Assembly: GCA_021325655.1 (NCBI GenBank)
Contig: JAJPGT010000043.1
Coordinates: forward strand, 207,959 to 271,958
DNA: 64,000 bases
Direction: 5' to 3'
DNA from: Pseudomonadota bacterium
Lineage (GTDB): Bacteria > Chloroflexota > UBA6077 > JAJPGT01
The position numbers were made by a program, and so were the translations under genes. The notes under the pieces are model-generated. The model was not told the DNA's origin. It did no database searches and was given only the letters and a program-made list of their open reading frames with translations. Within the stretch, counting starts at the first letter, position 1. Each line of letters opens with the position of its first letter. This document shows, in pieces, positions 4,117 to 21,130 of the stretch.

Positions 4117-4769
4117 CCTGCCTCCGTGAGCCGCTGCCGCAGCGCGGCCCGGTTCTGCTCCAGCACGCGCCGGAAGTGCTCCGAGTCCAGCGGGTCGGTC
4201 CACATGATGAGCGCATCCTCGCCGTTGTCGCTGTAATAGCGTCGGCGCACGCCCATCTCCTTGAAGGTGTATTTCCGGTACAGCGCCTGCGCGACCTCGT
4301 TGCTCACCCGCACCTCCAGTGTTACCCAGCGGGCCCCGACCGAGATCGCGTGGTCGATCAGGTGCAGCAGCAGCAGCTCCCCGACGTGCTTGCCTCGGTA
4401 CTGCGGGTGCACCGCGATCGTCGTCACGTGCGCCTCGTCGGTCATCAGCCACAGCCCGGCGTAGCCGACCACGCCCCGGTCCTCAGCCCCTCCGCTGGTC
4501 GGGTCGGCGCTGGCGCGGAGCAGCCGCTGGAGCTTGCCGAACAGTCCATCCTCCGTCCGATCCGCCGACTGGGGTTGTGGCTCGGGCGCGGACGCGCGTA
4601 CCGGCGCGGGTGCGTCCAGCACGCGGGCGACCACGTAGTGCGCCATGCGGTTCTCGAGAATTTCGCGGCGGTAGGCGCTCTGCGGCCACGGCTGGGGAAA
4701 CGACAGCCGCTCGATCGCGCTGACCGTCGGAATATCACCCAGGCGCATCGGCTCGACGACGAATCGCAT
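4113..4769 (-). CDS. rimI: Ribosomal-protein-alanine N-acetyltransferase (GNAT) carrying a ~45-aa low-complexity insert
   Basis: GNAT core (TIAVHPQYRGKHVGELLLLHLI) and position after tsaB, as in tsaE-tsaB-rimI clusters. Start at ATG 4767-4769 (MRFVVEPMRLGDIP). Confidence 0.8.
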   Translation of the reverse strand: MRFVVEPMRLGDIPTVSAIERLSFPQPWPQSAYRREILENRMAHYVVARVLDAPAPVRASAPEPQPQSADRTEDGLFGKLQRLLRASADPTSGGAEDRGVVGYAGLWLMTDEAHVTTIAVHPQYRGKHVGELLLLHLIDHAISVGARWVTLEVRVSNEVAQALYRKYTFKEMGVRRRYYSDNGEDALIMWTDPLDSEHFRRVLEQNRAALRQRLTEAG

Positions 4770-5431: not shown

Positions 5432-5953
5432 CTAGCTCTGCCCCTGCCGCGCCGACACGCCCACGCTCGCCGCCTGGCGAATCGCCCACTCAAGGCGCGC
5501 ATTCGCCGGGGCGAACGTGAAACGGCGCCGACGCTCGCCAAGCGGCTCGATCGCCACTCGGGTCACCGCGAGATCCGGCGGGACCGGCAGCCGCTCAGGC
5601 CATTCAATCGCGCACACCGCGTCGCTCTCCAGATACTCGTCCAGGCTCGCCAGCAGCGCCGGCTCGATCGACTCCAGCCGAAACAGATCGATGTGCACCA
5701 GCGGCAGCCGCCCCTGGTGCTCGCTGGCCAGGACGAAGGACGGGCTTGACACCGGCGTGGGCACCTCCAGCCCTCGCGCCAGCCCCTGGACGAATACGGT
5801 CTTCCCCGCCCCGAATGGACCAGCGAGTAGGAAGACATCGCCCGGCTCGACCGTACGACCGAGCGCCGCGCCGAGGGCGAACGTCTCCTCGGGGCTGGCC
5901 GTCTCGACCACCACAGGCGGCGCCGCTTCCAACTGTCCGTCCCGCTGGCTCAC
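5432..5953 (-). CDS. tsaE: tRNA t6A37 biosynthesis ATPase TsaE (YjeE)
   Basis: P-loop LAGPFGAGKTVFVQGLARGL, size about 170 aa, adjacent to tsaB. Confidence 0.88.
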   Translation of the reverse strand: MSQRDGQLEAAPPVVVETASPEETFALGAALGRTVEPGDVFLLAGPFGAGKTVFVQGLARGLEVPTPVSSPSFVLASEHQGRLPLVHIDLFRLESIEPALLASLDEYLESDAVCAIEWPERLPVPPDLAVTRVAIEPLGERRRRFTFAPANARLEWAIRQAASVGVSARQGQS

Positions 5954-7002
5954 AGCGGATGCTCCCAGGAACGGAGCCGCGGGGTATAGCGTTCGCCGCG
6001 GCTGTCCAGCACTCCTACCTCCTCCGCGCCCTCGCTGCGCTCACGTACCTGGCCGACCAGCGAGAGCGGCGCCAGACCTGCTGTCCGCAGCCGCTCCGCC
6101 GCGGCCCGGAGCACCTCTGCTCGCCCGGTGACCAGCAGCTCGTAGTCCTCGCCGCCGGCGAGCGCGATCTCGGCGGCCTCCTCGCCAAATACCTCGCGGA
6201 GCGCTGCGCTGACCGGCACGGCGTCGAGTCTCAGCTCGATCTGCACCCCACTCGCCCGCGCCAGCCGGGCGCAGTCGCCGAGCAGCCCATCGCTCAGGTC
6301 CATTCCACACCGGACGCCGCTATCCCGCAGCAGCGCCGCCTCCGGGACGCGCGGCTCAGGACGGTTATGGCGCCTAACCAGCTCCCGCTCCGCTTCGGTG
6401 CGCGGCTGGCGGCCGGCGAGCAGCAGCCGGAGCCCGCCCGCGGCATCGCCCAGCGTCCCCGTCACGGCCACCTGGTCGCCCGGCCGCGCCGCGTCGCGCC
6501 GCAGCAGGTGCGCGCCTGCTTCGGCCAGCAGCGCCACGCTCAGGAACGTCGTAGGAGAGGAGACCACGTCGCCGCCCACCACCTGGACCGCGAAGCGGGC
6601 GGCGTGGTCGGCCAGCCCGTGGTACAGCGACTCCAGCTCCTCCAGGGATCGTCCCCGACTCAGTCCGAGCGTGACCAGGGCGAAGCGAGGGGTGGCGCCC
6701 ATCGCTGCCGCATCGCTCACGTTCACCGCGAGCGCCTTCCAGCCCAGGTCACGCCAGCTCGTGAAGCGAAGGTCGAAGTGAACACCCTCGACGAGCGCGT
6801 CCGTGGTCGCGACGACCCGCGTACCCGGTGTCGGCGTCCAGACGGCGGCGTCGTCGCCAATTCCGAGCAGTAGCCCACCTGCGCCGGGGAGCGCCGGCGC
6901 GGACGGCATGGGGGTAACGATCTGGGCAAGTCGCTCGATCAGCCCGAACTCGCCCAGCGCCGACAGGCTCGACATGACGGTACGGAACGGCTCCTGCTGC
7001 AT
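5950..7002 (-). CDS. thiL: Thiamine-monophosphate kinase
   Basis: GEFGLIERL...GIGDDAAV N-terminal AIR-synthase-like motifs with a PurM-like C-domain. Start is ambiguous (TTG 7011, ATG 7002 or ATG 6975). Confidence 0.85.
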   Translation of the reverse strand: MQQEPFRTVMSSLSALGEFGLIERLAQIVTPMPSAPALPGAGGLLLGIGDDAAVWTPTPGTRVVATTDALVEGVHFDLRFTSWRDLGWKALAVNVSDAAAMGATPRFALVTLGLSRGRSLEELESLYHGLADHAARFAVQVVGGDVVSSPTTFLSVALLAEAGAHLLRRDAARPGDQVAVTGTLGDAAGGLRLLLAGRQPRTEAERELVRRHNRPEPRVPEAALLRDSGVRCGMDLSDGLLGDCARLARASGVQIELRLDAVPVSAALREVFGEEAAEIALAGGEDYELLVTGRAEVLRAAAERLRTAGLAPLSLVGQVRERSEGAEEVGVLDSRGERYTPRLRSWEHPL

Positions 7003-7085
7003 TGTATCCAAACGCCAGCGCCGGCCGGTCCGGGCCTCGCCGGCCCCGGCTGCGCCTTGAGCCGCTTCCGGTGTACCGTCGTAGT

Positions 7086-7823
7086 GTGCGGATCGCGGTG
7101 CTCTCCGACATTCATAGCAACCTCGTGGCGCTCGAGCAGGTGCTGCGCGACTGCGGCACGGTCGACGCGGTCTGGTGCCTGGGCGATGTCGTCGGCTACG
7201 GGCCGCGGCCGAACGAGGTGGTGGCGCGGCTCCAGGCAGTCGGCGCGGTTGCCGTGGCCGGGAACCATGACTGGGCGGCGATCGGGCGGATCGACACCGA
7301 CGACTTCAACCCGGACGCGGCTGCGGCGGCGCAGTGGACGGCGCGCATGCTGCTGCACGAGGCGAGCGCCTATCTCGCCGGCCTGCCCCAGGTTCGGGTG
7401 CACGACCAGCAGCGCGCAACCCTGGTGCACGGGAGTCCGCGTGACCCGCTCTGGGAATACCTGCTGGACGCGCACCGCGCCGCGGCGAACCTCGCCCACT
7501 TCGCCACCCAGCTCTGCCTGTTCGGCCACACCCACATTCCGAGCCGCTTCGTGGACCGCGGCGACGGCCGCCTGCGCGCGGAATACGCCGAACCGGACGA
7601 CGTGCTCGATCTCCAGCAGCTCCAGGGGAAGCTGCTGCTGAACCCGGGCAGCGTCGGCCAACCGCGCGACGGCGATCCCCGCGCCGCCTACCTGCTGCTC
7701 GACCTCGGCCAGGGCACCGCTACCTGGCGCCGGGTGGAGTATGACGTGTGGGAGACCCAGCAGCAGATGATCGAAGCGAAGCTGCCGCGCTGGCTGGTCG
7801 AGCGGCTGGCGCTCGGCCGTTAG
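7086..7823 (+). CDS. Calcineurin-like metallophosphoesterase (YfcE/MJ0936-like)
   Basis: Motifs VLSDIHSN, GDVVGYGP, GNHD, GHTH. Start placed at GTG 7086 (VRIAVLSDIH). Confidence 0.8.
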   Translation: MRIAVLSDIHSNLVALEQVLRDCGTVDAVWCLGDVVGYGPRPNEVVARLQAVGAVAVAGNHDWAAIGRIDTDDFNPDAAAAAQWTARMLLHEASAYLAGLPQVRVHDQQRATLVHGSPRDPLWEYLLDAHRAAANLAHFATQLCLFGHTHIPSRFVDRGDGRLRAEYAEPDDVLDLQQLQGKLLLNPGSVGQPRDGDPRAAYLLLDLGQGTATWRRVEYDVWETQQQMIEAKLPRWLVERLALGR

Positions 7824-8401
7824 GCGGAGGCCTCTTCTTCCGTGGAGGTCGGCTCGTCCTTGGGCGAGATCATGTGGGTACGGTTCGAGACCACCTCGGC
7901 AACGACCATGGAGTTCGGGATGCGGATCTCCACGTTCGAACGGGTCCGGAGCACCATGGTGCGGAAGCCGACGTGCTCCACCACTCCCTCGTGCTCCTTC
8001 ACCTGGATGGTGTCGCCCAGCCGGAACGGCCGCTCGAACAGCAGGTAGATCCCGGCGAAGAAGTTCCGGAGCAGGTCCTGGAGCGCCAGGCTGACCGCCA
8101 GACCGACCACCCCGATGGCAGCGACGAGCGTGCTGGGTGGAACGCCGAACAGGTCGAGCAGGATCGACGCGGCGAGGATGAGCACACCCAGGTGGATGAG
8201 GCGGGCGCCGAGCAGGATGATGCTCGGATCGACAGAGCTGCGGCGGGCGGCGGCGCGGAAGGCGCTGCTGGCCCGCCGCCCAACGTAGAACGTCAGGAGC
8301 AGGACCACGAGCGCCTTCATCAGCGTCGGAAGCGCCGACGCCAGGAAGGGAATCGCAGCCGCGGACCACTCCTGCAGGCCGGCCTCACGCAGGATATCCA
8401 T
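7820..8401 (-). CDS. Small-conductance mechanosensitive channel family protein (short MscS-like)
   Basis: Three TM helices followed by the MscS pore/beta-domain signature LALQDLLRNFFAGIYLLFERPFRLGDTIQV. Confidence 0.8.
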   Translation of the reverse strand: MDILREAGLQEWSAAAIPFLASALPTLMKALVVLLLTFYVGRRASSAFRAAARRSSVDPSIILLGARLIHLGVLILAASILLDLFGVPPSTLVAAIGVVGLAVSLALQDLLRNFFAGIYLLFERPFRLGDTIQVKEHEGVVEHVGFRTMVLRTRSNVEIRIPNSMVVAEVVSNRTHMISPKDEPTSTEEEASA

Positions 8402-8457
8402 GCAGGCGAGTGTAGGCGAGCGGGCAGCGCGTTCGCAGCCAGCCGGGCCGCCGAGCG

Positions 8458-8736
8458 TCAGTTACTCGGCTGCTCTCGCTGCAAGATCTCCTTGGCCGCC
8501 TGCTCAACGCCCGCCGCGACGCAGTCGCGGTAGGTGGAATACAGCGCCTTGTTGAGCAGCCGCATCCGCCAGTCGCTCGGATGCAGGACATTGATGCACT
8601 CGCGACGCTGCTTCTGCAGCCAGGCCAGACGTTGCAGGAAGAAGAGCTGCGAGGCCGTCATCGGGGACTGAGGAGTATTGGTCGGGCTCGAGCTCACGCC
8701 TCCATCCCCATCCTGCTCGCTCTGCATCATCGTCAC
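8458..8736 (-). CDS. Hypothetical protein (92 aa)
   Basis: ORF with ordinary, non Arg/Ala/Pro-biased composition (LFFLQRLAWLQKQRRECINVLHPSDWRMRLLNKALYSTYRDC), divergent from the PPIase gene. I recognise no family. Confidence 0.5.
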   Translation of the reverse strand: MTMMQSEQDGDGGVSSSPTNTPQSPMTASQLFFLQRLAWLQKQRRECINVLHPSDWRMRLLNKALYSTYRDCVAAGVEQAAKEILQREQPSN

Positions 8737-8818
8737 ACCTGCCTGCGCATCTTTGGCACACCCCCAGCGGCGCGCCCGCTATAGTGTACCAACTTCGTCT
8801 GACCGAGTTGAGAACCGA

Positions 8819-9496
8819 ATGCCTCGATTCCCCCTCTGGCTGCTGCCCCTGTCGATGACGATCCTGCTGGCGACTGCCTGCTCGTCACCCGGGGGCAGCG
8901 CGGCGCAGCCGACTCGGCCCGCCGCCCCCACTCCGCAAGGCGCGCCGACCCGACCTGCGGCCGGCGGGGCGACCGGGAAGCAGTGGCCCAGCCCGCCGCC
9001 GATGACGATCGACCCGAACAAGCAGTACAGCGCGACGCTGAAGACCGACAAGGGCGAGGTGGTCGTCGCGCTGCTGCCCAAGGAAGCGCCGATTGCGGTC
9101 AACAACTTCGTCTTCCTGGCACGCCAGGGCTTCTACGACAACGTCCCGATCCACCGCATCGTCCAGGGCTTCGTCATCCAATCGGGCGATCCGACTGGCA
9201 CCGGGACGGGCGGCCCCGGGTACACGATTCCAGACGAGAAGGTCAGCCTGGACTACAAGCGGGGCGCGGTGGCGATGGCCCGCACACCGGCGCCGAACTC
9301 GGCTGGCAGCCAGTTCTTCATCTGCCTGCAAGATATCCAGCTCCCCAAGCAGTACGTCATCTTCGGGCAGGTGACCAGCGGGATGGACGTAGTGGACCAG
9401 ATCGCGCAGACGCCAGTCAAGGCCGGCCCGAGCGGCGAGCGGTCGACCCCGATCACCCCGGTCATGATCCAGAGCGTGACGGTGAGCGAACGCTAG
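8819..9496 (+). CDS. Peptidyl-prolyl cis-trans isomerase, cyclophilin type, lipoprotein
   Basis: Lipoprotein signal MPRFPLWLLPLSMTILLATAC and cyclophilin core (FYDNVPIHRIVQGFVIQSGDP, NSAGSQFFI). ATG at 8819. Confidence 0.9.
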   Translation: MPRFPLWLLPLSMTILLATACSSPGGSAAQPTRPAAPTPQGAPTRPAAGGATGKQWPSPPPMTIDPNKQYSATLKTDKGEVVVALLPKEAPIAVNNFVFLARQGFYDNVPIHRIVQGFVIQSGDPTGTGTGGPGYTIPDEKVSLDYKRGAVAMARTPAPNSAGSQFFICLQDIQLPKQYVIFGQVTSGMDVVDQIAQTPVKAGPSGERSTPITPVMIQSVTVSER

Positions 9497-9576
9497 CTGG
9501 CCCGGGCCAGCGCTCAGCCAGCAGCGCCCGGCTCACCTCTCTCGAACGGGACAGCGGGGCGATACCGAGACGCGCC

Positions 9577-10554
9577 CTACCGCCGCAGCACCTTGGGGTT
9601 GACGCAATGGACCGGCTGGCCGCCGGTCAGGACCGCGACCACGTTTTCCGCCGCCAGGCGCGCCATCGCCTGGCCGGACTCGCGGGAGATGCCGGCGCAG
9701 TGCGGGGCGAGGATCACGTTGTCCATCCCGCGCAGCGGGCTATCGTCCGGGAGCGGCTCGACCTCGAACACGTCCAGCCCCGCTCCGGCGATCCAGCCCT
9801 CCTGGAGCGCCCGGATCAGCGCCTGCTCATCGATCAGCGGGCCACGCGCGGTGTTCACCAGGTACGCGGTAGGCTTCATCGCCCGCAGCTCCCGCTCCCC
9901 GATGAGGTGGCGCGTCTCCGCGGTGAGCGGGGCGTGCAGGGTGATGAAGTCCGACTCCGCGAGCAGCGTCGCCAGCGGGACGTAGCGGATGCCGTAGCGC
10001 TCGGCGTACGGGAGGTCCTGGACGACGTCATAGGCGAGGACGCGGCACTCGAAGCCGTGGGCGCGGCGGGCGACGTGCTTACCGATCGCTCCGAGTCCAA
10101 CGATGCCCACCACCTTGTCGCGCATGTCCACCGCCTCCGGGCGGACCCAGAGCCCGGCACGAACGGATTGGTCCGCCTCGAACAGCCGGCGGGCGAGCGC
10201 CAGGATCAGGGCCATCGCGAAGTCGGCCACGGTGCGGTCGTTCGCGCCCGGGGTAGTGGTGACCGCCACACCATGCTGCGTGGCAGCGGCAACGTCCACC
10301 GAGTCGTAGCCGACCCCGGTCCGGGAGATCACCCGCAGCTCCGGGGCGCGGGCGAACACCTCCTCCGTGTAGCGCTCGGTGCTGGCGATCACCGCCGGGG
10401 CATCGCCGAGCGCCGCCACCACCTCGTCCACGCTCCAGGTTGGGGACGAGTGGCGGATATCTGGAGTCAGCCCGGCAGCCTTCAGGATCTCCAGCGCGGT
10501 CGGATCGTGCTGCGCCAGGGAGGAGGTAATCAGCACTCGGCGCGGCGCGCTCAT
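9577..10554 (-). CDS. D-isomer-specific 2-hydroxyacid dehydrogenase (phosphoglycerate dehydrogenase-like)
   Basis: NAD fold GIVGLGAIGKHVARRA and the catalytic-domain layout of the family. ATGA overlap with the upstream FAH gene. Confidence 0.85.
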   Translation of the reverse strand: MSAPRRVLITSSLAQHDPTALEILKAAGLTPDIRHSSPTWSVDEVVAALGDAPAVIASTERYTEEVFARAPELRVISRTGVGYDSVDVAAATQHGVAVTTTPGANDRTVADFAMALILALARRLFEADQSVRAGLWVRPEAVDMRDKVVGIVGLGAIGKHVARRAHGFECRVLAYDVVQDLPYAERYGIRYVPLATLLAESDFITLHAPLTAETRHLIGERELRAMKPTAYLVNTARGPLIDEQALIRALQEGWIAGAGLDVFEVEPLPDDSPLRGMDNVILAPHCAGISRESGQAMARLAAENVVAVLTGGQPVHCVNPKVLRR

Positions 10555-12881: not shown

Positions 12882-13961
12882 ATGAGTGCTCAAGCCCCTG
12901 CTCTTGCGCGTCCATCCCGGTCCTGGGGTGAGTGGAGCTGGCTGAGCAGCCCTGGCTGGGATACCCGCTTCATTCTGGCCTCCGCCGCGCTCATCCCGAT
13001 CCCGCTCCTGCTCTTCCACGGGGCGGGCCTGTCTGTCGCCGCGGTCAATCTTATCGTCGCCGCCCTTGTCGGCGGGCCGCACATGTACTCAACCTACACG
13101 CTCACGTTCCTGGAGCGGCGCTTCTGGCTACGCTACCCGCTGCTGACCCTCGGGGCGCTGGCCGTCCCGGTCGCTGTCGTGGTGCTGGCAGTGGTCGACC
13201 TGACCTTGCTGCTGACGCTGTTCCTCGCCTGGGCCTCGTTCCATGTCTTGCAGCAGGCGGCCTTCCTCAGTGACTCGTACCGAGTTCGGGGGCCGGCAGA
13301 GCCCTCGCGCTGGGCGCGGGTGATCGACTACGCGGTGCTCTTTAGCAGTATGTACCCATTTGCGATCGACAAGCTGATCCACGATCGGTTCATCATCGAG
13401 AACCATGTGCTGCGACTGCCGGCCATTCTGCGGAGCGAGGCGCTGGTGACGCTGGCCTGGCTCGCCTTCGCGGTCGCGCTGGCGCTGTTCACTGCAAAGT
13501 CAATCGTCGAGGCGCGCGAAGGCCGACTGAACTACACCAAGACCGTCCTGATCGCGCTAACCGTCTCGGTCGCGTTTGTGATCCCCTCCTTCCATCAGCT
13601 CGATGTAGCGTTCCAGGGGATCAATGTCTGGCACTCATTTCAGTACCTGGCGATCATCTGGCTGGTCAACAAGCAGCGGAAAGAGCGCGGGCTGATCTCG
13701 AACCGGGCGGTGGCCAAGCTATCCGGGGCGGACAACACCCTGCGGTTCTATGCCACACTGGTGGGGATTACCGCGCTGGGTGGTGTGGTTGTCCTGGCGC
13801 TCGAGCTGCTCACCTCTCTATCCACGGAGCAGTGCTACTACATCGTGGTACTGGGCTGCCTACTGGTCCACTACTACTTCGACACGTTCCTGTTCACTCG
13901 GGCGGGCCTGGTGATCCGCGAGCAGCTCGCGCCGCTGACGGGAGTGTGGGAGTGGCCGTAG
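12882..13961 (+). CDS. Polytopic membrane protein of unknown family with four His-containing motifs
   Basis: AAGGAG RBS then ATG 12882; roughly 8 hydrophobic helices. Motifs GGPHMYSTY, WASFHVLQQ, NVWHSFQYL, LVHYYFD. Sits directly upstream of the SPT-like gene. Confidence 0.7.
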   Translation: MSAQAPALARPSRSWGEWSWLSSPGWDTRFILASAALIPIPLLLFHGAGLSVAAVNLIVAALVGGPHMYSTYTLTFLERRFWLRYPLLTLGALAVPVAVVVLAVVDLTLLLTLFLAWASFHVLQQAAFLSDSYRVRGPAEPSRWARVIDYAVLFSSMYPFAIDKLIHDRFIIENHVLRLPAILRSEALVTLAWLAFAVALALFTAKSIVEAREGRLNYTKTVLIALTVSVAFVIPSFHQLDVAFQGINVWHSFQYLAIIWLVNKQRKERGLISNRAVAKLSGADNTLRFYATLVGITALGGVVVLALELLTSLSTEQCYYIVVLGCLLVHYYFDTFLFTRAGLVIREQLAPLTGVWEWP

Positions 13962-14146
13962 GGATGGACGCTCCTCCTCTCGGTGTTGGGCGCCTGTGGT
14001 CGCGCCTGGAGGCCTGGGCTCGCCTGTTAGTGCTACACTCCAGCCCGATGGGCGGACCTGGGAAGCGGTCTCGGGTATCCGCGCGGCTGACGGGCCTGTC
14101 GAGCCTCGTCTGACCCGCCGATCCATCTGCCGCTGGAGGCCTTCCT

Positions 14147-15342
14147 GTGGACCCGTTTGACAAGGTCAGATCGTTCACTCGGCCGCGCCAGGTCGCCGCG
14201 CTCGGCCTGTACCCCTATTTCATCCCGATCTCGTCGCAGGCTGGGGCCGAGGTCATCGTGAACGGCCGCGCGATGCTCATGTTCGGGTCGAACAACTACC
14301 TCGGCCTGACCCAGGATCCGCGGGTAAAGGAAGCGGCGATCCGGGCGCTGGAGCAGTTCGGCACCTCCTGCACCGGATCGCGCTTCCTGAACGGGACGCT
14401 CGACCTGCACATTGAGCTGGAGCAGCGCCTGGCGACGTGGACCCAGAAGGAGTCGGCGCTTGTCTTCACCACCGGCTACCAGGCAAATCTCGGCGCGGTC
14501 TCGGCGCTGGCCGGTCGGCACGATCTGATTATCGTCGACCGGGCCGACCACGCGAGCATCATCGATGGTGCCCGGCTGAGCTACGCCGAAGTGGCGAAGT
14601 TCAAGCACAACGACCTGGAGCAGCTCGAGCAGATCCTGGCTGAGAACCAGGGTAAGAAGGGGCTGCTGATCGTTGTCGACGGTGTATTCAGCATGGAGGC
14701 GACCTGGCCGACCTGCCCGGGATCGTGGCGCTGAAGAAGAAGTACGGCGCCCGGTTGATCCTGGACGATGCCCACGGGGTGGGGGTGTTCGGCGAGCAGG
14801 GCCGCGGCACCGCGGCGCATTTCGGGCTCCAGGACGAGGTGGACGTCATCATCGGGACGTTCTCGAAGTCCTTCGCCTCCACCGGCGGCTTCGTCGCCGC
14901 GGATGAGCAGGTGATCAGCTACATCAAGCACCACGGGCGCTCGATGGTTTTCAGCGCCGCGATCCCGCCGGCCAGCGCCGGGGCGGCGCTGGCGGCGCTG
15001 GAGATTATCGAGCGCGAGCCGGAGCGTCGGGAACGCCTCTGGCGCAACGTCGAGCGCTGGCGCAACGGGTTGCTCGCGCTCGGATTCGACCTGGGCACGA
15101 GCTGCACCCAGATCGTCCCGATCATCATCGGCGAGGACATGCGGCTGGCCGTGGTCTGGCGCCGGCTGTTCGACGCTGGCCTATTCACCAACCCGGCGGT
15201 CGCTCCGGCGGTGGAGCCCGGGCGGGCGCTGCTGCGCACAAGCTGTATCGCCACGCACACCGACGCGCACATCGACCAGGCCCTGGAGATCATCGCCCAG
15301 GTTGGCGAGAAGACCGGCGTGCTACCGCAGCGAGTCGGGTAG
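14147..15342 (+). pseudogene. Alpha-oxoamine synthase, serine-palmitoyltransferase-like (PLP-dependent acyltransferase), split by an apparent 1-nt deletion near 14698
   Basis: Two abutting ORFs (14147-14734 and 14725-15342) together give a full-length AOS: GSNNYLGL, GTSCTGSRFLNGT, VDGVFSME|GDLADLPGIVALKKKYGARLILDDAH, PLP-lysine GTFSKSFASTGGF. The frame changes inside GAGG(G)C at 14696-14700. Confidence 0.85.
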
Positions 15343-15485
15343 CCGGAGCCAGGCTCCGAGGACCGGCCTCCTCGCGGGTGTACGCTGGCGATGGTCGCTG
15401 CGATGTCCAGGCGCACGGGCCTTCTGCGGCGCCACGGTAGACCCTCCCGGCCTGCTGGTCGGCGTCCCAGGGGGAGCGTCGTGAG

Positions 15486-16655
15486 ATGAGTCGCTCGCGA
15501 CGGGTGCTGATCGCCATGTCCGAAGCCGGCGGGGGCCACCGCGCCGTCTCGGGGGCGCTCGCCCGCGCCCTTGAGCAGCACCACCAGGCGGAGGTTCGGA
15601 TCGCCGACCTGATCGCGCTGGACCCGCGGAGCTGGCAGCACCGCATGGTCCGCCTCTACCCCTGGATCATCCGCCACGCGCCACTGCTCAACGGCCTGGC
15701 CTACCACACCACCAACCGCCGGCGGGTCTACGGCGCGCTCGCCAGCCGAGCCAAGGAGCGGCTGGTGCCGCGGATCGCTCGGGAGCTGCAAGCCTGGGAG
15801 CCGGCGGTCGTGGTGACGACACACCCGTTCTGCAATCGGGTCGTGCTCGACGCACTCGACGCGGTCGGACTGTCGATCCCGGTCGTTGCCGCGGTGACCG
15901 AGCTGGTTTCGGTACACGTGAGCTGGATCGATCCGCGCCTCAGCCGCTACACGGCGGCGACCGAGGAGGCGCGCCTGGCGGTGCTGCGGCACGGGGCGCC
16001 CCCGGAGCGGGTGACACTGACTGGCCTGCCGGTGAACGCCGCGTTCGGGCGGGTGGCGCGCCCACCGGCCGAGATTCGCCGCGAGCTGGGGCTCGATCCG
16101 GACCGGTTCACAGCGCTGCTGGTCGGTGGAGGCGAGGGTGCCGGCCGCCTGGCAGCCCAGGTGTGCGCCCTGGACGGTAGCCCGCTGAACCTCCAGCTTA
16201 TCGTGGTCTGCGGCCGTAACGCCCGGTTACGCGCCCGGCTGCTCCGCGCCCCGCCCCGCCATCCGGCGGCCATCCTCGGCTTCGTAGACACCATGCCACA
16301 ACTGGTGCACGCCGCGGATATCGTGGTGACCAAGGGCGGCCCGACGACGATCGCGGAAGCGCTGGTCTCCGCGCGCCCGGTGCTCGTCACCTCGGTGCTG
16401 CCTGGCCAGGAGGAGGGGAACGACACGTTCGTCGAGCGCCATGGCGCCGGGTACAGGGTGGGCTCGCTGTCCGCGCTGGTCCGGGCGGTGGCCCGCCTGG
16501 TAGAGGACGAACCCCAGCGCCAGGTCATGGCAGAGCGGGCGGCGCGCCTGCTGCGGCGGGACGCGGCGGAGGCGGTGGCCGACACCGTCGTCGCCGAGGC
16601 GGACCGCCTCGGTCGCTGGGAGGCGGCTGCCGGCGCGGCCCCGCAGCGGTCCTGA
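15486..16655 (+). CDS. GT28-type glycolipid synthase (MGDG synthase/UgtP-like glycosyltransferase)
   Basis: N-terminal RRVLIAMSEAGGGHRAVSGALARAL (MGDG_synth-like) and C-terminal VTKGGPTTIAEAL...PGQEEGNDTFV (Glyco_tran_28_C-like). Confidence 0.85.
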   Translation: MSRSRRVLIAMSEAGGGHRAVSGALARALEQHHQAEVRIADLIALDPRSWQHRMVRLYPWIIRHAPLLNGLAYHTTNRRRVYGALASRAKERLVPRIARELQAWEPAVVVTTHPFCNRVVLDALDAVGLSIPVVAAVTELVSVHVSWIDPRLSRYTAATEEARLAVLRHGAPPERVTLTGLPVNAAFGRVARPPAEIRRELGLDPDRFTALLVGGGEGAGRLAAQVCALDGSPLNLQLIVVCGRNARLRARLLRAPPRHPAAILGFVDTMPQLVHAADIVVTKGGPTTIAEALVSARPVLVTSVLPGQEEGNDTFVERHGAGYRVGSLSALVRAVARLVEDEPQRQVMAERAARLLRRDAAEAVADTVVAEADRLGRWEAAAGAAPQRS

Positions 16656-16658
16656 GCG

Positions 16659-17642
16659 ATGGCCGGCCAGCCGCAGCGGGTCCTGGTCACCGGCGCCACC
16701 GGCTTCATCGGCGGGCACCTGGCCGAGGCGCTCCAGCGCCGTGGCGCTGAGGTGCGAGTGCTCGCGCGCGACCCGCGCCGCTTGCAAGCCCGGTTCGGGG
16801 AGGTCGTCCGCGGCGACCTGGCGGACCCGGCAGCGCTCACGGCTGCTGTGCAAGGCGTCGACGTCGTTTACCACGTTGCGGGGCTGACCAAGGCGCGGCG
16901 CGAGTCGGACTACTTCGCGGTCAACCACGTGGGCACGGTGCACCTGCTGGACGCCTGCCGCCGCTCCAACAGCGCGCTGCGGCGCTTCGTCCTGGTCAGC
17001 AGCCAGGCGGCGGCAGGACCGAGCTGCGAGGGGCGGCCGGTCCGCGAGTCGGACCCGCCCCACCCGGTGAGCGCCTACGGGCTGAGCAAGCTCAAAGCAG
17101 AGCAGGCCGCGCTCGCCTGCTCCGGGCTGTTCCCGGTCACGATCGTCCGTCCGCCGGTGGTCTACGGCCCGCGCGACCGCGACACGCTGCTGTTCTTCCG
17201 GGTGGCGCGCTACGGTCTGGTACCGCGGCTGGCGGTGATCCGCGCCCTGAGCATCGTCCACGTCGCCGACCTGGTGCGGGGCATTCGGCGCGCAGCGGAG
17301 ACGCCGGCCGCCGCCAACCGGGTCTACTTCCTGGCCAACGAGCAGCCGGTAAGCCTGCCGGAGCTGGCCGAGCCGATCGCCCGGGCGCTCGGGGCCCGGC
17401 CGATCCCGGTGCCGGTGCCGGTCACGTCCCTGTTCGCCGTCGCCGCACTGGCGGAGCTGCTCGCCCGCCTGACGGGCCGGATCACCCCGATCACCCGCAA
17501 CAAGGTCCGCGAAGCGACCCAGCGCGAATGGGTGTGCGATCCCTCGCGTGCGGCGCGGGAGCTCGGCTGGCGGGCGGAGATTCCACTGCTGGACGGACTG
17601 CGCGAGACGGCGGCGTGGTATCGTCAGGCGGGGTGGCTCTAA
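16659..17642 (+). CDS. NAD(P)-dependent epimerase/dehydratase-family (extended SDR) oxidoreductase
   Basis: VLVTGATGFIGGHL Rossmann motif and YGLSK catalytic YxxxK. It starts 3 nt after the GT28 gene, and its TAA overlaps the next ATG (TAATG). Confidence 0.88.
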   Translation: MAGQPQRVLVTGATGFIGGHLAEALQRRGAEVRVLARDPRRLQARFGEVVRGDLADPAALTAAVQGVDVVYHVAGLTKARRESDYFAVNHVGTVHLLDACRRSNSALRRFVLVSSQAAAGPSCEGRPVRESDPPHPVSAYGLSKLKAEQAALACSGLFPVTIVRPPVVYGPRDRDTLLFFRVARYGLVPRLAVIRALSIVHVADLVRGIRRAAETPAAANRVYFLANEQPVSLPELAEPIARALGARPIPVPVPVTSLFAVAALAELLARLTGRITPITRNKVREATQREWVCDPSRAARELGWRAEIPLLDGLRETAAWYRQAGWL

Positions 17643-19135
17643 TGCCAGGCGGGCTGCTGGCGGACCTGCGGGCGCTGCTCGGCGCCGATCGGGTGGTGGA
17701 GGCCGAGAACGATCGCCGCACCTACGCCTACGACGCTTCCTTTCTCTCGCACCTGCGCACCTGTGTCCCGGACGCCGTGGTGGTCGCCCGCGAGCCGGAC
17801 GACGTGGTCAAGACGCTCCGCTACGCTCAGGAGCACGAGATCCCGGTCGTGCCGCGCGGAGCCGCCAGCGGCCAGGCGGGCGGCACCATCCCGACCCGCG
17901 GCGGGATCGTCCTGGCGCTGAACCGGATGAACCGGGTGCTGGAGATCGACGCTGCCAACCTGCAGGCGATCGTCGAGCCCGGCGTCATCCACGCCCGCTT
18001 GAACCAGGCGCTGGCGCCCCACGGTCTGATCTTTCCTCCGGATCCGGGCAGCAGCCGGATGTGTACCGTCGGCGGGATGGCAGCGACGAACGCGCACGGG
18101 ATGCGCGCAGTCAAGTATGGCCCCACCGCGGACTGGGTGCTCGGGCTGGATGTGGTGCTGGCCGGGGGGCGAAGGCTCACCACGGGCTGCGCCAGCTCCC
18201 GCGCCCGCCAGACCTCCTCTGGCCTGGAGCTGACCAAGCTCTTCGTCGGGTCCGAGGGCTCGCTCGGGGTCATCACTCGACTGCGGCTGAAGCTGCTCCC
18301 GACTCCGGCTGCCCGAGCAGCGGTGCTGGCGCTGTTCGATCGCCTCGAAGCGGCCGGGCGGGCGGTGAGCGCGGTGTTCCGAGCCGGGATCCTCCCCGCC
18401 GCCGCCGAGATCCTGGACCGCGGCGCGATCCGGGCGGTGAACCTGTACCGGCCGCGACTCGGCCTGCCAGACTGCGAGGCGATGCTGCTGTTCGAGGTGG
18501 ACGGCAACCCGCCGGGGGTCGAGTTCGACGCGCGCCGGATCGTCGAGGCTGTCTCCGACCTGGCGGTCCAGGCCGACTGGTCCACGGACCCCAAGCGCAT
18601 CGCCGCGCTCTGGGAGGGGCGGAGCGTGGTCGGGGCCGCCGCGGCCATGGTGCGCCCGGGCGGCTTTCGGGCGTTCTGTGGCGAAGACCTCTGCGTCCCG
18701 CTGGACCGCGTCCCCGAGGCGCTGGCAGAGATTCGCGCCATCGGCGCCCGCCACGGCATCCCGGTGGTCACCTACGGCCACATCGGCGGCGGTGGGCTGC
18801 ACCCGGGCCATCTGATCGATCCGTTGAGCCCGGCCGACGTCGCCGCAGTGCAGGCGGTGGCGGACGAGATCCATCGGCTGGCGATCCGGCTCGGTGGGAC
18901 TACCACCGGCGAGCACGGCGTCGGCCTGGCGCGCGCCCCCTACATGGCCCAGGAGCACGGCGAAGCGCTGGAGGTGATGCGGCAGATCAAGGCGGCGCTG
19001 GACCCGAAGGGCATCATGAACCCCGGCAAGGTGATCCCGCTGCCAGACGAGCCAGCGCTGGACGCTCTCGACCTGGCAGCGGCGCCAGCCGACGAGCGCC
19101 CGGCTCTTGGCGCCGCCTACGAAGACCTCGGCTGA
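17642..19135 (+). CDS. FAD-linked oxidase (GlcD / alkyl-DHAP-synthase-like fold)
   Basis: FAD_binding_4 pattern (VVVAREPDDVVKTLRYAQEHEIPVVPRGAASGQAGG) with an FAD-oxidase C-domain. Start at ATG 17642; the earlier part of the tracked ORF overlaps the SDR gene. Confidence 0.85.
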   Translation: MPGGLLADLRALLGADRVVEAENDRRTYAYDASFLSHLRTCVPDAVVVAREPDDVVKTLRYAQEHEIPVVPRGAASGQAGGTIPTRGGIVLALNRMNRVLEIDAANLQAIVEPGVIHARLNQALAPHGLIFPPDPGSSRMCTVGGMAATNAHGMRAVKYGPTADWVLGLDVVLAGGRRLTTGCASSRARQTSSGLELTKLFVGSEGSLGVITRLRLKLLPTPAARAAVLALFDRLEAAGRAVSAVFRAGILPAAAEILDRGAIRAVNLYRPRLGLPDCEAMLLFEVDGNPPGVEFDARRIVEAVSDLAVQADWSTDPKRIAALWEGRSVVGAAAAMVRPGGFRAFCGEDLCVPLDRVPEALAEIRAIGARHGIPVVTYGHIGGGGLHPGHLIDPLSPADVAAVQAVADEIHRLAIRLGGTTTGEHGVGLARAPYMAQEHGEALEVMRQIKAALDPKGIMNPGKVIPLPDEPALDALDLAAAPADERPALGAAYEDLG

Positions 19136-19150: not shown

Positions 19151-20338
19151 CTACCCGATCACGCCTGCCTCGCGCAGGCGCTCCTGCTCTGCCCGATCGT
19201 AGCCTAGCTCGTCCAGCACTTCCGCGGTGTGGGCCCCCAGCGGCGGGCCGGCCCAGTCCAGCCGCGGCGGCGTCTCGGCCAGCCGCAGCGGGGAGCCAAC
19301 CACCTCAACCAGCCCCAGCTCCGGGTGCGGGAGCCGCGCCAGCACCCCGCGCGCCTGGATCTGCGGCGCTGCCACCACCTGGTCGTAGCGCCGGAGCACG
19401 CCGCAGGGGATACCGGCCGCGTCCAGCCGCGCCATCCACACCGCGGTCGGCGCCAGCACCATCGTCCGCTCGACCTCGTCCGCCAGCTCCGCCCGGTTGC
19501 GGGTTCGGGAGGCGTTGTCGGCGAAGCGCGGTTCCGCCAGCAGGTCGGGCCGCTCCAGGACCTGGCAGAACCGCTCCCACAGGCGCGGCGTGGTGGCGCC
19601 GAGCGTGACGTAGCCGTCGGCCGTGCGGTACGCCTGGTAGGGCGCCGCGCCCCGGTGCGCCGAGCCGATCGCGGTGGGAATCTCGCCGCTCGCCAGGTAG
19701 CCGCTCACCTCCCAGACGGCGAGCGACAGCGCACTCTCCAGCATGCTGATATCGATGTACTGGCCCCGCCCAGCGCGGAGACGGTGAATGAGCGCACTCT
19801 GGATCGCATTGGCAGCGTACAGCGCGGCGGTCAGGTCGGCGATCGGCACCCCCACCTTGGCCGGCGGCTGGTTCGGGTGCCCGTTTACGCTCATCAGCCC
19901 GGACTCCGCCTGGACGACCAGGTCCAGCCCCGGCCGCTCCGCCTCCGGCCCGGTCTGCCCGAAGCCCGACACCGAGCAGTAGATGATCTCCGGGCGAACC
20001 CGGCGCACCGCCTCGTAGTCGATCCCCAGGTCGCGCACCGTCCCCGGGCGGTAGTTCTCCAGGACGACGTCGGCGGTGCGGGCCAGCCGGAGGAAGATCT
20101 CGCGGCCCTCCTCTCGCTTCAGATTCACCACCACGCTGCGCTTGTTGCGGTTGAGAGTGAGGAAGCCCGCGGCGTGACCGCGCAGGTGCGGCGGCGTGGC
20201 GCGGGTATGGTCGCCCGTGCCCGGCGGCTCGACCTTGACGACGTCCATGCCAAGGTCGGCCAGCACCATGCCGGCGAAGGGGGCGGCCATGAAGTTGCCC
20301 AGCTCGATCAGGCGGAAGCCGGAAAGCGGCGCGGACAT
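19151..20338 (-). CDS. CoA-transferase family III (CaiB/BaiF/formyl-CoA transferase-like)
   Basis: N-terminal RLIELGNFMAAPFAGMVLADLGMDVVKVEPP and ENYRPG motifs typical of the family. Confidence 0.88.
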   Translation of the reverse strand: MSAPLSGFRLIELGNFMAAPFAGMVLADLGMDVVKVEPPGTGDHTRATPPHLRGHAAGFLTLNRNKRSVVVNLKREEGREIFLRLARTADVVLENYRPGTVRDLGIDYEAVRRVRPEIIYCSVSGFGQTGPEAERPGLDLVVQAESGLMSVNGHPNQPPAKVGVPIADLTAALYAANAIQSALIHRLRAGRGQYIDISMLESALSLAVWEVSGYLASGEIPTAIGSAHRGAAPYQAYRTADGYVTLGATTPRLWERFCQVLERPDLLAEPRFADNASRTRNRAELADEVERTMVLAPTAVWMARLDAAGIPCGVLRRYDQVVAAPQIQARGVLARLPHPELGLVEVVGSPLRLAETPPRLDWAGPPLGAHTAEVLDELGYDRAEQERLREAGVIG

Positions 20339-20344
20339 GGAACC

Positions 20345-21130
20345 TCAGCGTCCAATGAATCGCGGGGGCCGCTTCTCGAGGAAGGCGCGCACTCCCTCAC
20401 GGAAATCCTCGGTTCCGAAAAATCCGGCCTGCTCGCGCTGCGTGTCTCCGACGCCGCTGAGCGAGGGATCGTCCAGCACCGTCTCGACCGCGCGTTTGGC
20501 CCAGCGGACCGACAGCGGCGCGGCCGCCAGAATCGCCTGGACCAGCCGTTCCGCCTCGGCCTCCAGCCGCTCCGCCGGATAGACCGCGTTCACCAGCCCG
20601 GTGCGCAGCGCCCAGGCGGCGTCGAAGCGGCCGGCGCTGAATAGCATCTCCTTGGCCGCGGCCGGCCCCACCGCCCGCACCAGGCGGCGCACCTCGTCGT
20701 AGCCGATGGTGATCCCGAGCCGGGCGGAGGGAATGCCAAACACCGCGTCCTCGGAGGCGAGGCGCAGGTCGGCCATGAGCGCCAGCTCACAGCCGCCGCC
20801 AAGGCAGAAGCCATGAATTACCGCGATCAGCGGCTGTGGCAGCGAGGCGAGCGCATCGAGCGCCTGCTGCACGATCCGGTTGTATTCGAGCGCGAGCTCC
20901 GGGGTCGAGCGGCGGGTTTCGAACTCGGAGATGTCCGCGCCAGCGCAGAAGGCGCGCTCACCCGCGCCGCGCACGACCACCACCCGAACCGCGCTCTCGC
21001 CGGCCAGCTCCCGTGCCACCTGCCCGAGCCGCTCCCAGCCGGCAACTTTCAGGGCGTTATGTCGAGCTGGCTGGTCGAGAATAATCGTCCCAACCGCTCC
21101 CGCCCGCTGAAGCTGCACCCCGGCGTCCAC
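20345..21130 (-). CDS. Enoyl-CoA hydratase/isomerase (crotonase) family protein
   Basis: Crotonase signatures FCAGADI and IAVIHGFCLGGGCELALMAD. Confidence 0.88.
   Translation of the reverse strand: MDAGVQLQRAGAVGTIILDQPARHNALKVAGWERLGQVARELAGESAVRVVVVRGAGERAFCAGADISEFETRRSTPELALEYNRIVQQALDALASLPQPLIAVIHGFCLGGGCELALMADLRLASEDAVFGIPSARLGITIGYDEVRRLVRAVGPAAAKEMLFSAGRFDAAWALRTGLVNAVYPAERLEAEAERLVQAILAAAPLSVRWAKRAVETVLDDPSLSGVGDTQREQAGFFGTEDFREGVRAFLEKRPPRFIGR

Follow-up and report, generated by a model that had tools for sequence, protein, structure and literature searches.

The window analysed here, a stretch of 64,000 nucleotides (G+C ∼70%) of contig JAJPGT010000043.1, contains between positions 12,882 and 19,135 a cluster of five genes that, we think it probable though far from assured, codes for the greater part of a bacterial pathway to glycosphingolipids. 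In this reading the cluster would be an operon for a β-hexosyl-ceramide (or a hexosyl long-chain base) that has no linked bCerS, the N-acyltransferase of bacterial ceramide synthesis, and that includes an accessory membrane protein, here called MEM. The initial annotation had proposed a candidate pathway to sphingoid or long-chain diol glycolipids. The sphingoid half of this proposal stands, since the alpha-oxoamine synthase (AOS) of the cluster resembles serine palmitoyltransferase (SPT; Spt in bacterial gene names), an SDR accompanies Spt and a GT28 glycosyltransferase is linked to these genes in relatives, while the half that invoked long-chain diols and an oxidase is not supported. The open reading frame (ORF) listing and Pfam bear out five consecutive genes on the plus strand:

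12882–13961, plus strand: membrane protein MEM, 359 amino acids (ORF listing)
14147–15342, plus strand: Spt-type AOS, 398 amino acids after frameshift repair (halves 14147–14734 and 14725–15342)
14696–14700, plus strand: 1-nucleotide deletion splitting the Spt gene (GAGG where GAGGG is needed; one G missing at ∼14698)
15486–16655, plus strand: GT28 (MGD1/UgtP-like, inverting) lipid glycosyltransferase (Pfam, PDB; ceramide is the putative acceptor)
16659–17642, plus strand: extended SDR of the NAD-dependent epimerase/dehydratase family, putative CerR-type 3-keto reductase (Pfam, synteny)
17642–19135, plus strand: FAD-linked oxidase of the D-lactate dehydrogenase/glycolate oxidase type (true start ATG 17642)

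The last three genes are closely packed, as had been described: the GT28 stop codon TGA is followed by GCG and the SDR start ATG, leaving a 3-nucleotide gap, and the SDR gene ends and the oxidase gene begins within one shared TAATG.

In the proposed pathway Spt would join L-serine and a long-chain acyl thioester to give 3-ketosphinganine, a step for which the sequence evidence is strong. A bCerS-type GNAT N-acyltransferase, presumably encoded elsewhere in the genome and outside the window, as in Proteobacteria, would then add an amide-linked fatty acid. The CerR-type SDR, judged by its conserved synteny, would reduce the 3-keto group of the long-chain base or of its N-acylated form, and the inverting GT28 would attach a hexose, with a UDP-sugar as donor, at the C1 hydroxyl to form β-hexosyl-ceramide, a step proposed from synteny only. 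MEM would act as an accessory sphingolipid protein.

The serine palmitoyltransferase-type enzyme and its partners

Among NCBIfam models the AOS scores highest with Spt of the CFB group (529.9 bits), ahead of bioF (396), KBL (372), ALAS (254) and CqsA (223). Its top matches in the PDB are all SPTs, with the enzyme from Sphingobacterium multivorum (SmSPT; PDB 3A2B, 8GUH) at 419 bits for 3A2B and sphingomonad SPTs at 292–310 bits, followed at lower ranks by cysteate acyltransferase (262 bits), KBL (237–258 bits) and BioF (no more than 225 bits). The alignment with SmSPT extends over 384 residues at 49.7% identity with zero gaps and places AOS K241, in a GTFSKS context, on Lys244, the lysine that forms the Schiff base with pyridoxal phosphate (PLP). 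Fifteen SmSPT residues that hold L-serine and PLP (PMC10196870) were compared: Asn52, Gly80, Ser81, Phe83, Leu84, His138, Ser185, Asp210, Ala212, His213, Thr241, Ser243, Lys244, Met271 and Phe272. Fourteen of these are identical in the AOS, the exception being a Val in place of Met271, which is a main-chain contact; this substitution and a CFB-group score below the model's cut-off are what set the window enzyme apart from SmSPT. The motifs GTSCTGSRFLNGT and GTFSKSFASTGGF, which the initial annotation had cited in its comparison with SPT, are both found in the translation.

In a neighbour-joining tree with E. coli Kbl and BioF as a two-sequence outgroup, 99 of 100 bootstraps split these two from all other sequences; for ALAS and CqsA the comparison was one of scores only, and both lie lower. 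The window AOS groups with three Chloroflexota-like relatives in all 100 bootstraps, and in 69 of 100 this group also includes the Sphingobacterium SPT, as against the alphaproteobacterial SPTs. The earlier view that the AOS is SPT-like rather than KBL or BioF, for which phylogenetic placement had been proposed as a check, is thus upheld by the ranking of the profile and PDB matches, the active-site residues and the tree. Together these provide strong sequence evidence for an Spt-type enzyme, predicted to form 3-ketosphinganine.

Spt-like genes in metagenome-assembled genomes have been described, in the searched text of two reports, from 38 phyla that include 218 Chloroflexota species, and were correlated there with ceramides and glycosylceramides (PMC11334938, PMC12619533). 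This is the same phylum-level claim, with the same predicted lipids, as would be made here; given these reports of 2024–25, sphingolipid potential in the phylum is therefore not new, and the suggestion that the pathway would be novel for the phylum does not hold.

The SDR matches Pfam Epimerase (PF01370, 130 bits) and its translation carries TGATGFIG (GxxGxxG) and YGLSK (YxxxK) motifs, while its best NCBIfam match, HpnA at 152 bits, is under that model's cut-off of 368. The neighbourhoods of its homologues, which for high-GC relatives were read from tblastn matches and called genes, were compared. The gene order is MEM-Spt-GNAT-GT28-SDR in L088 (AOS 70% identical to that of the window), Spt-GNAT-GT28-SDR in L083 (66%), MEM-Spt-GT28-SDR in L002 (69%), which has no GNAT gene at that position, and Spt-GT28 in L084 and L089 (63–65%). 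The GNAT protein has ∼375 residues and an Acetyltransf_1 domain. The window SDR is 39–51% identical to the SDRs of Spt-GNAT-SDR triads, found in L083, L088 and on plasmids of Rubrobacter radiotolerans and Streptomyces (39–41% for the two plasmids), and SDRs of 34–51% identity adjoin Spt or bCerS in L083, L088, L085 and L086 as well as in the bCerS-type loci counted next. Among 80 bCerS-type metagenome loci, retrieved with a GNAT query from among the matches listed, a window-like AOS is adjacent in at least 57 and a window-like SDR in at least 42, both lower bounds because many contigs are short. The proposal that an epimerase-family SDR serves as the companion reductase of Spt is supported by its presence in the triads of relatives and in these loci.

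The ceramide pathway of Caulobacter, made up of Spt, bCerS and CerR, was reportedly worked out by Stankeviciute et al. in 2022 and Olea-Ozuna et al. in 2021. The searched text of two papers gives these as CC_1162, CC_1154 and CC_1164, respectively (PMC11324152, PMC11087976). The sphingolipid locus runs from CC_1168 to CC_1152, with CC_1154 as cerS (PMC11324152), and its layout is matched by a Roseomonas mucosa locus on a 424-kb megaplasmid (NZ_CP025062.1, 286931–312046), in which genes for two LptF/LptG-family permeases and a sterol-desaturase-family protein precede a homologue of our GNAT protein (39% identical). This locus also has genes for an acyl carrier protein (ACP), Spt, a diacylglycerol-kinase-family protein, a CDP-alcohol phosphatidyltransferase and an NTP transferase. 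The GNAT family is therefore equated with bCerS, and the Spt-GNAT-SDR triad is the published module of Spt, bCerS and CerR. In the Roseomonas record itself the bCerS-like gene is annotated merely as a 'hypothetical protein', and in sister records as a 'dATP pyrophosphohydrolase'.

The window resembles the Caulobacter system in pairing an Spt-type AOS with an epimerase-family reductase, and its relatives hold a bCerS-type GNAT gene between the two; that cerS can sit outside the spt operon is likewise a feature of Proteobacteria. It differs in that the cluster contains no gene for ACP or acyl-ACP synthetase and the window no bCerS, while the operon incorporates a GT28 and a new membrane protein and belongs to a Chloroflexota-like host. 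The phylum of this host is judged from the named sequences closest to it, which carry the labels Chloroflexota or Dehalococcoidia.

Two of the triads lie on plasmids. Plasmid 1 of Rubrobacter radiotolerans (NZ_CP007515.1, 191 kb; positions 5701–9068 of locus L086) carries a complete set of Spt (53% identical to that of the window), bCerS-like and CerR-like genes, followed by an LTA-synthase-family gene. As a cultured actinobacterium, it might be used to test a pathway of this type in the laboratory. On a plasmid of Streptomyces sp. NBC_01001 (positions 5769–10295 of locus L085), a gene encoding a condensation-domain protein comes after Spt-GNAT-SDR, and this triad may lead to a secondary metabolite derived from a sphingoid and not to a membrane lipid.

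The GT28 glycosyltransferase and the membrane protein MEM

Pfam identifies MGDG_synth (65.6 bits, cut-off 25) and Glyco_tran_28_C (41.8 bits, cut-off 22) domains in the glycosyltransferase, and a GGGH motif is present at its N-terminus. These features are shared with the MGD1-type monogalactosyldiacylglycerol (MGDG) synthases of plants and Chloroflexota and with Firmicutes UgtP/YpfP, from which the window enzyme differs in its context of sphingolipid rather than glycerolipid genes and in its sub-cut-off family scores. Seven other loci (L002, L083, L084, L088, L089, L092 and L093) carry a homologue of the same subfamily (39–53% identity) next to Spt or to a bCerS-like gene, so that the linkage of this enzyme to sphingoid genes, for which synteny in relatives had been named as the check, is not peculiar to the window. 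As the linkage is repeated in differing gene orders, we propose ceramide as the acceptor, and a hexosyl-ceramide is the best reading of the product. Staphylococcus YpfP, expressed in yeast by Jorasch et al. in 2000, is said to have glucosylated ceramide.

The bacterial ceramide glycosyltransferases known to date, the α-galactosylceramide synthase of Bacteroides fragilis and the glucuronic acid transferase of Zymomonas, are retaining enzymes of family GT4 (PMC9692976). The window enzyme would have the same role, placing a sugar onto ceramide, but belongs to a different family, the inverting GT28 of the MGD1/UgtP type, and a β-hexosyl-ceramide is therefore expected. If it does act on ceramide, no inverting ceramide glycosyltransferase of the MGD1 type would have been described from bacteria before it. 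In another uncultured organism, two loci (L092, 9001–12727, and L093, 2049–5775) combine a bCerS-like GNAT gene, a GT28 gene (46% identical) and a GT4 gene with no Spt nearby, an arrangement that suggests a diglycosyl-ceramide module.

Glycosylceramides have been correlated with Spt-carrying Chloroflexota (Ding et al. 2024, PMC11334938), and both ceramides and glycosylceramides of anoxic waters and sediments with the phylum, in reports whose searched text contains Spt and lipid correlations but names neither a glycosyltransferase gene nor MEM (PMC11334938, PMC12619533). The conserved Spt-GT28 pair is thus a concrete and testable gene candidate for the glycosylceramides observed. Both the operon association of Spt and CerR with GT28 and the MEM family appear to be undescribed in the literature searched.

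MEM has no match in Pfam or NCBIfam. It was introduced as a His-rich membrane protein, a description that does not fit its 8 histidines in 359 residues. The AlphaFold (AF2) model (pLDDT 89, pTM 0.86) is all-helical, with roughly 8–9 predicted membrane-spanning helices by our reading, and Foldseek found no match to its fold in the PDB (best E 0.098, TM no higher than 0.3). Among 34 homologues, H67, H121, Q125, D149, H251, Q254, H330 and D334 are invariant, as are the motifs GGPH, WASxHVxxQ, DY, FQGxNxWHSxQY and HYxxD. The family is widespread, with 1,098 clusters at 50% identity (E up to 0.001) and 567 confirmed matches in GTDB species genomes, and its phyla include Chloroflexota, Actinomycetota, Acidobacteriota, Bacteroidota/Ignavibacteria, Entotheonella, Zixibacteria and Eisenbacteria. 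No GTDB species genome has a MEM more than ∼50% identical to that of the window, as against 54–72% on metagenome contigs; a close representative genome for the window's lineage seems to be lacking in the GTDB species collection. All MEM carriers encountered in the analysis are metagenome-assembled genomes.

MEM is linked to ceramide genes in three phyla. Within the clade of the window it lies directly upstream of Spt (L001, L002, L087, L088 and the P0011 contig). Solirubrobacteraceae-type loci, about 25 of them, have it directly downstream of a bCerS-like gene, opposite a divergent Spt, and in two Eisenbacteria loci it ends an Spt-bCerS-SDR series; overall a bCerS-like gene adjoins MEM in 27 of 80 genome loci, from Actinomycetota and Eisenbacteria. 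This gene link is a first functional clue to a widespread and unannotated family. We conclude that MEM is associated with lipids, probably with sphingolipids in particular, and that it probably binds a metal. Four invariant histidines fall in predicted transmembrane helices, and for this reason MEM is probably either an enzyme that modifies lipids with the help of a metal or a transporter of lipids or metals. It might modify the long-chain base or ceramide, catalyse an acylation or head-group step not yet recognised, or be the sphingolipid flippase that is still missing. That MEM founds a new metal-dependent integral-membrane family of bacterial sphingolipid metabolism and, at the same time, that the GT28 is the first inverting MGD1-type ceramide glycosyltransferase from bacteria, is a combination we put forward only tentatively and consider doubtful as a whole.

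Further observations were made on the family. In five Bacteroidota/Ignavibacteria loci (L045, L048, L055, L064 and L078; ∼7000–10100) MEM is directly 3′, on the same strand, of a gene for a 605-residue AMP-binding protein; this neighbour, similar to long-chain acyl-CoA synthetases, is a second and independent link of MEM to lipid metabolism. Domain fusions among the 150 best representatives amount to one with a heavy-metal-associated (HMA) domain and one doubtful case. The former, P0424, is a distant homologue of 438 residues with the HMA domain at its N-terminus; the latter, P0404, combines MEM with part of a CobW/HypB/UreG GTPase domain and may be a gene-calling artefact. Taken with the four invariant histidines, these fusions hint at metal binding by MEM and settle nothing. 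Several known membrane enzymes were considered as relatives and rejected. TLC/Lag1-type ceramide synthases, alkaline ceramidases/PAQR, PAP2, MBOAT and SRD5A/ICMT-like proteins gave no Foldseek match in the PDB with E below 0.09 or TM above 0.3, and a relationship with fatty-acid hydroxylases/sterol desaturases received an hhalign probability of 0.2%.

Weighing the acceptor and the N-acylation step

A number of points weigh against the glycosphingolipid reading. The product of this organism's cluster is predicted from genes alone, and the orthology of the window-family CerR and bCerS to the Caulobacter genes is argued from synteny. None of the NCBIfam equivalog cut-offs for Spt is reached by the AOS (529.9 bits with the CFB-group model NF047600, whose cut-off is 640); it is not filed under this clade-specific equivalog, a decision that says nothing about SPT activity. 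MEM is found away from sphingolipid genes in most genomes, and in one complete Chloroflexota chromosome ∼0.9 Mb separate it from the Spt-GT28 pair. Three family members used as tblastn queries gave no match with E below 0.6 anywhere in the 64 kb, so that the window holds no bCerS homologue, and no contig of the window's sample was among the matches listed in the protein search and the metagenome bCerS scan. What is made could for this reason be a long-chain base bearing a sugar and not a ceramide. Finally, the nearest PDB protein to the GT28 is Arabidopsis MGD1 (181 bits), which uses diacylglycerol, and ceramide and diacylglycerol are not told apart as acceptor by the sequence data.

The last point leads to the alternative that survives best, though we regard it as unlikely: Spt and SDR would make sphingoid lipids, and the GT28 would be an ordinary monoglycosyl-diacylglycerol synthase, placed beside them by co-regulation of phosphate-free membrane lipids. 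Indeed, after MGD1 the second PDB match of the GT28 is a processive diacylglycerol glucosyltransferase (103 bits), its best NCBIfam match is diglucosyl-diacylglycerol synthase, and MGD1-type enzymes are common in Chloroflexota. However, none of its NCBIfam scores reaches a curated cut-off, and the adjacency to Spt or bCerS-like genes in the seven other loci, in varied orders that include GNAT-GT28-GT4 without Spt, is beyond chance. Ceramide is retained as the preferred acceptor.

Less probable still, and to our minds quite improbable, is that the lineage has no N-acyltransferase, so that a free long-chain base is glycosylated (psychosine-like) or acylation is carried out by MEM in a non-homologous manner. 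The bCerS-like gene that separates Spt from GT28 in L088 and L083 is missing there in the window and in L002, both of which keep MEM, and no bCerS homologue occurs elsewhere in the 64 kb. Yet MEM and a bCerS-like gene are immediate neighbours in L088, in Solirubrobacteraceae and in Eisenbacteria, and MEM is therefore not a simple replacement of bCerS; it also has no acyltransferase signature. In Proteobacteria cerS is usually unlinked to spt, being normally in an operon separate from spt and cerR (PMC11324152), and its being missing from the window is for this reason not unusual. We therefore continue to favour a bCerS encoded elsewhere in the genome.

The frameshift, the oxidase and neighbouring genes

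The deletion that splits the Spt gene, noted earlier as a frameshift, is real in the window, one G being lost at ∼14698, and the 195-residue truncated ORF is found in only one public record, an NCBI contig of 324,632 bp. It is very improbable that Spt is a pseudogene in this organism and the cluster dead, as a JGI contig (sample 3300005529) equals window positions 4147–25342 across 21,197 bases with a single gap, at the deletion only, and encodes an intact AOS of 398 residues. Intact 398-residue versions are present on 18 contigs of the same or a near-identical organism, the longest contig with the protein reaching 685 kb, Aminotran_1_2 (PF00155) is recognised on each AOS half with strong scores, and there are no further lesions. 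Most likely, then, the frameshift reflects a mistake in a single assembly or a rare variant there, and not a property of the organism.

The oxidase has FAD_binding_4 and FAD-oxidase_C domains (Pfam) and matches glycolate oxidase (263 bits) and D-lactate dehydrogenase (260 bits) in the PDB over its full length, compared with 90 bits, for the FAD domain alone, to alkyl-dihydroxyacetone-phosphate (alkyl-DHAP) synthase; the analogy drawn earlier with this ether-lipid enzyme is not sustained. With the glcD model (TIGR00387) it scores 364.9 bits, under the 567.9 cut-off, and it is assigned to the wider D-2-hydroxyacid dehydrogenase group only. The TAATG overlap suggests that it is probably co-transcribed with the SDR. 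It nevertheless probably lies outside the lipid pathway, in which it had been given a step: L002, L083 and L088, which are all three of the relatives readable 3′ of the SDR, have unrelated genes in its place, and an oxidase homologue, of 31% identity, is near just one of the 80 bCerS-type loci. The best explanation is a lineage-specific passenger gene.

With the oxidase not counted in the pathway, the hypothesis that long-chain 1,2-diols of the Thermomicrobium type arise when condensation by the AOS is followed by ketoreduction, then by oxidation or deamination with FAD and lastly by glycosylation, loses its sole specific support. Biosynthesis of these diols in Thermomicrobium is unresolved (PMC2615216) and the overlap of the oxidase gene with the SDR stop codon suggests co-translation, but we found no support for such a route and hold it to be highly improbable, given that the oxidase is absent from the three relatives' clusters and from 79 of the 80 triad loci, is of the D-lactate dehydrogenase/glycolate oxidase type and not an amine oxidase or alkyl-DHAP synthase, and that the known ceramide pathway fully explains the remaining cluster. 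The glycosphingolipid reading has no bearing on the origin of Thermomicrobium-type 1,2-diols.

A scan for promoters and terminators gave nothing informative, and between MEM and Spt, where a conserved regulatory element was sought, the ribosome-binding site alone is conserved. Rfam identifies one tRNA-Pro, unrelated to the cluster. On the minus strand, convergent with the oxidase, positions 19151–21130 hold genes for a family III CoA-transferase and an enoyl-CoA hydratase, which are possible metabolic partners of the oxidase rather than lipid genes.

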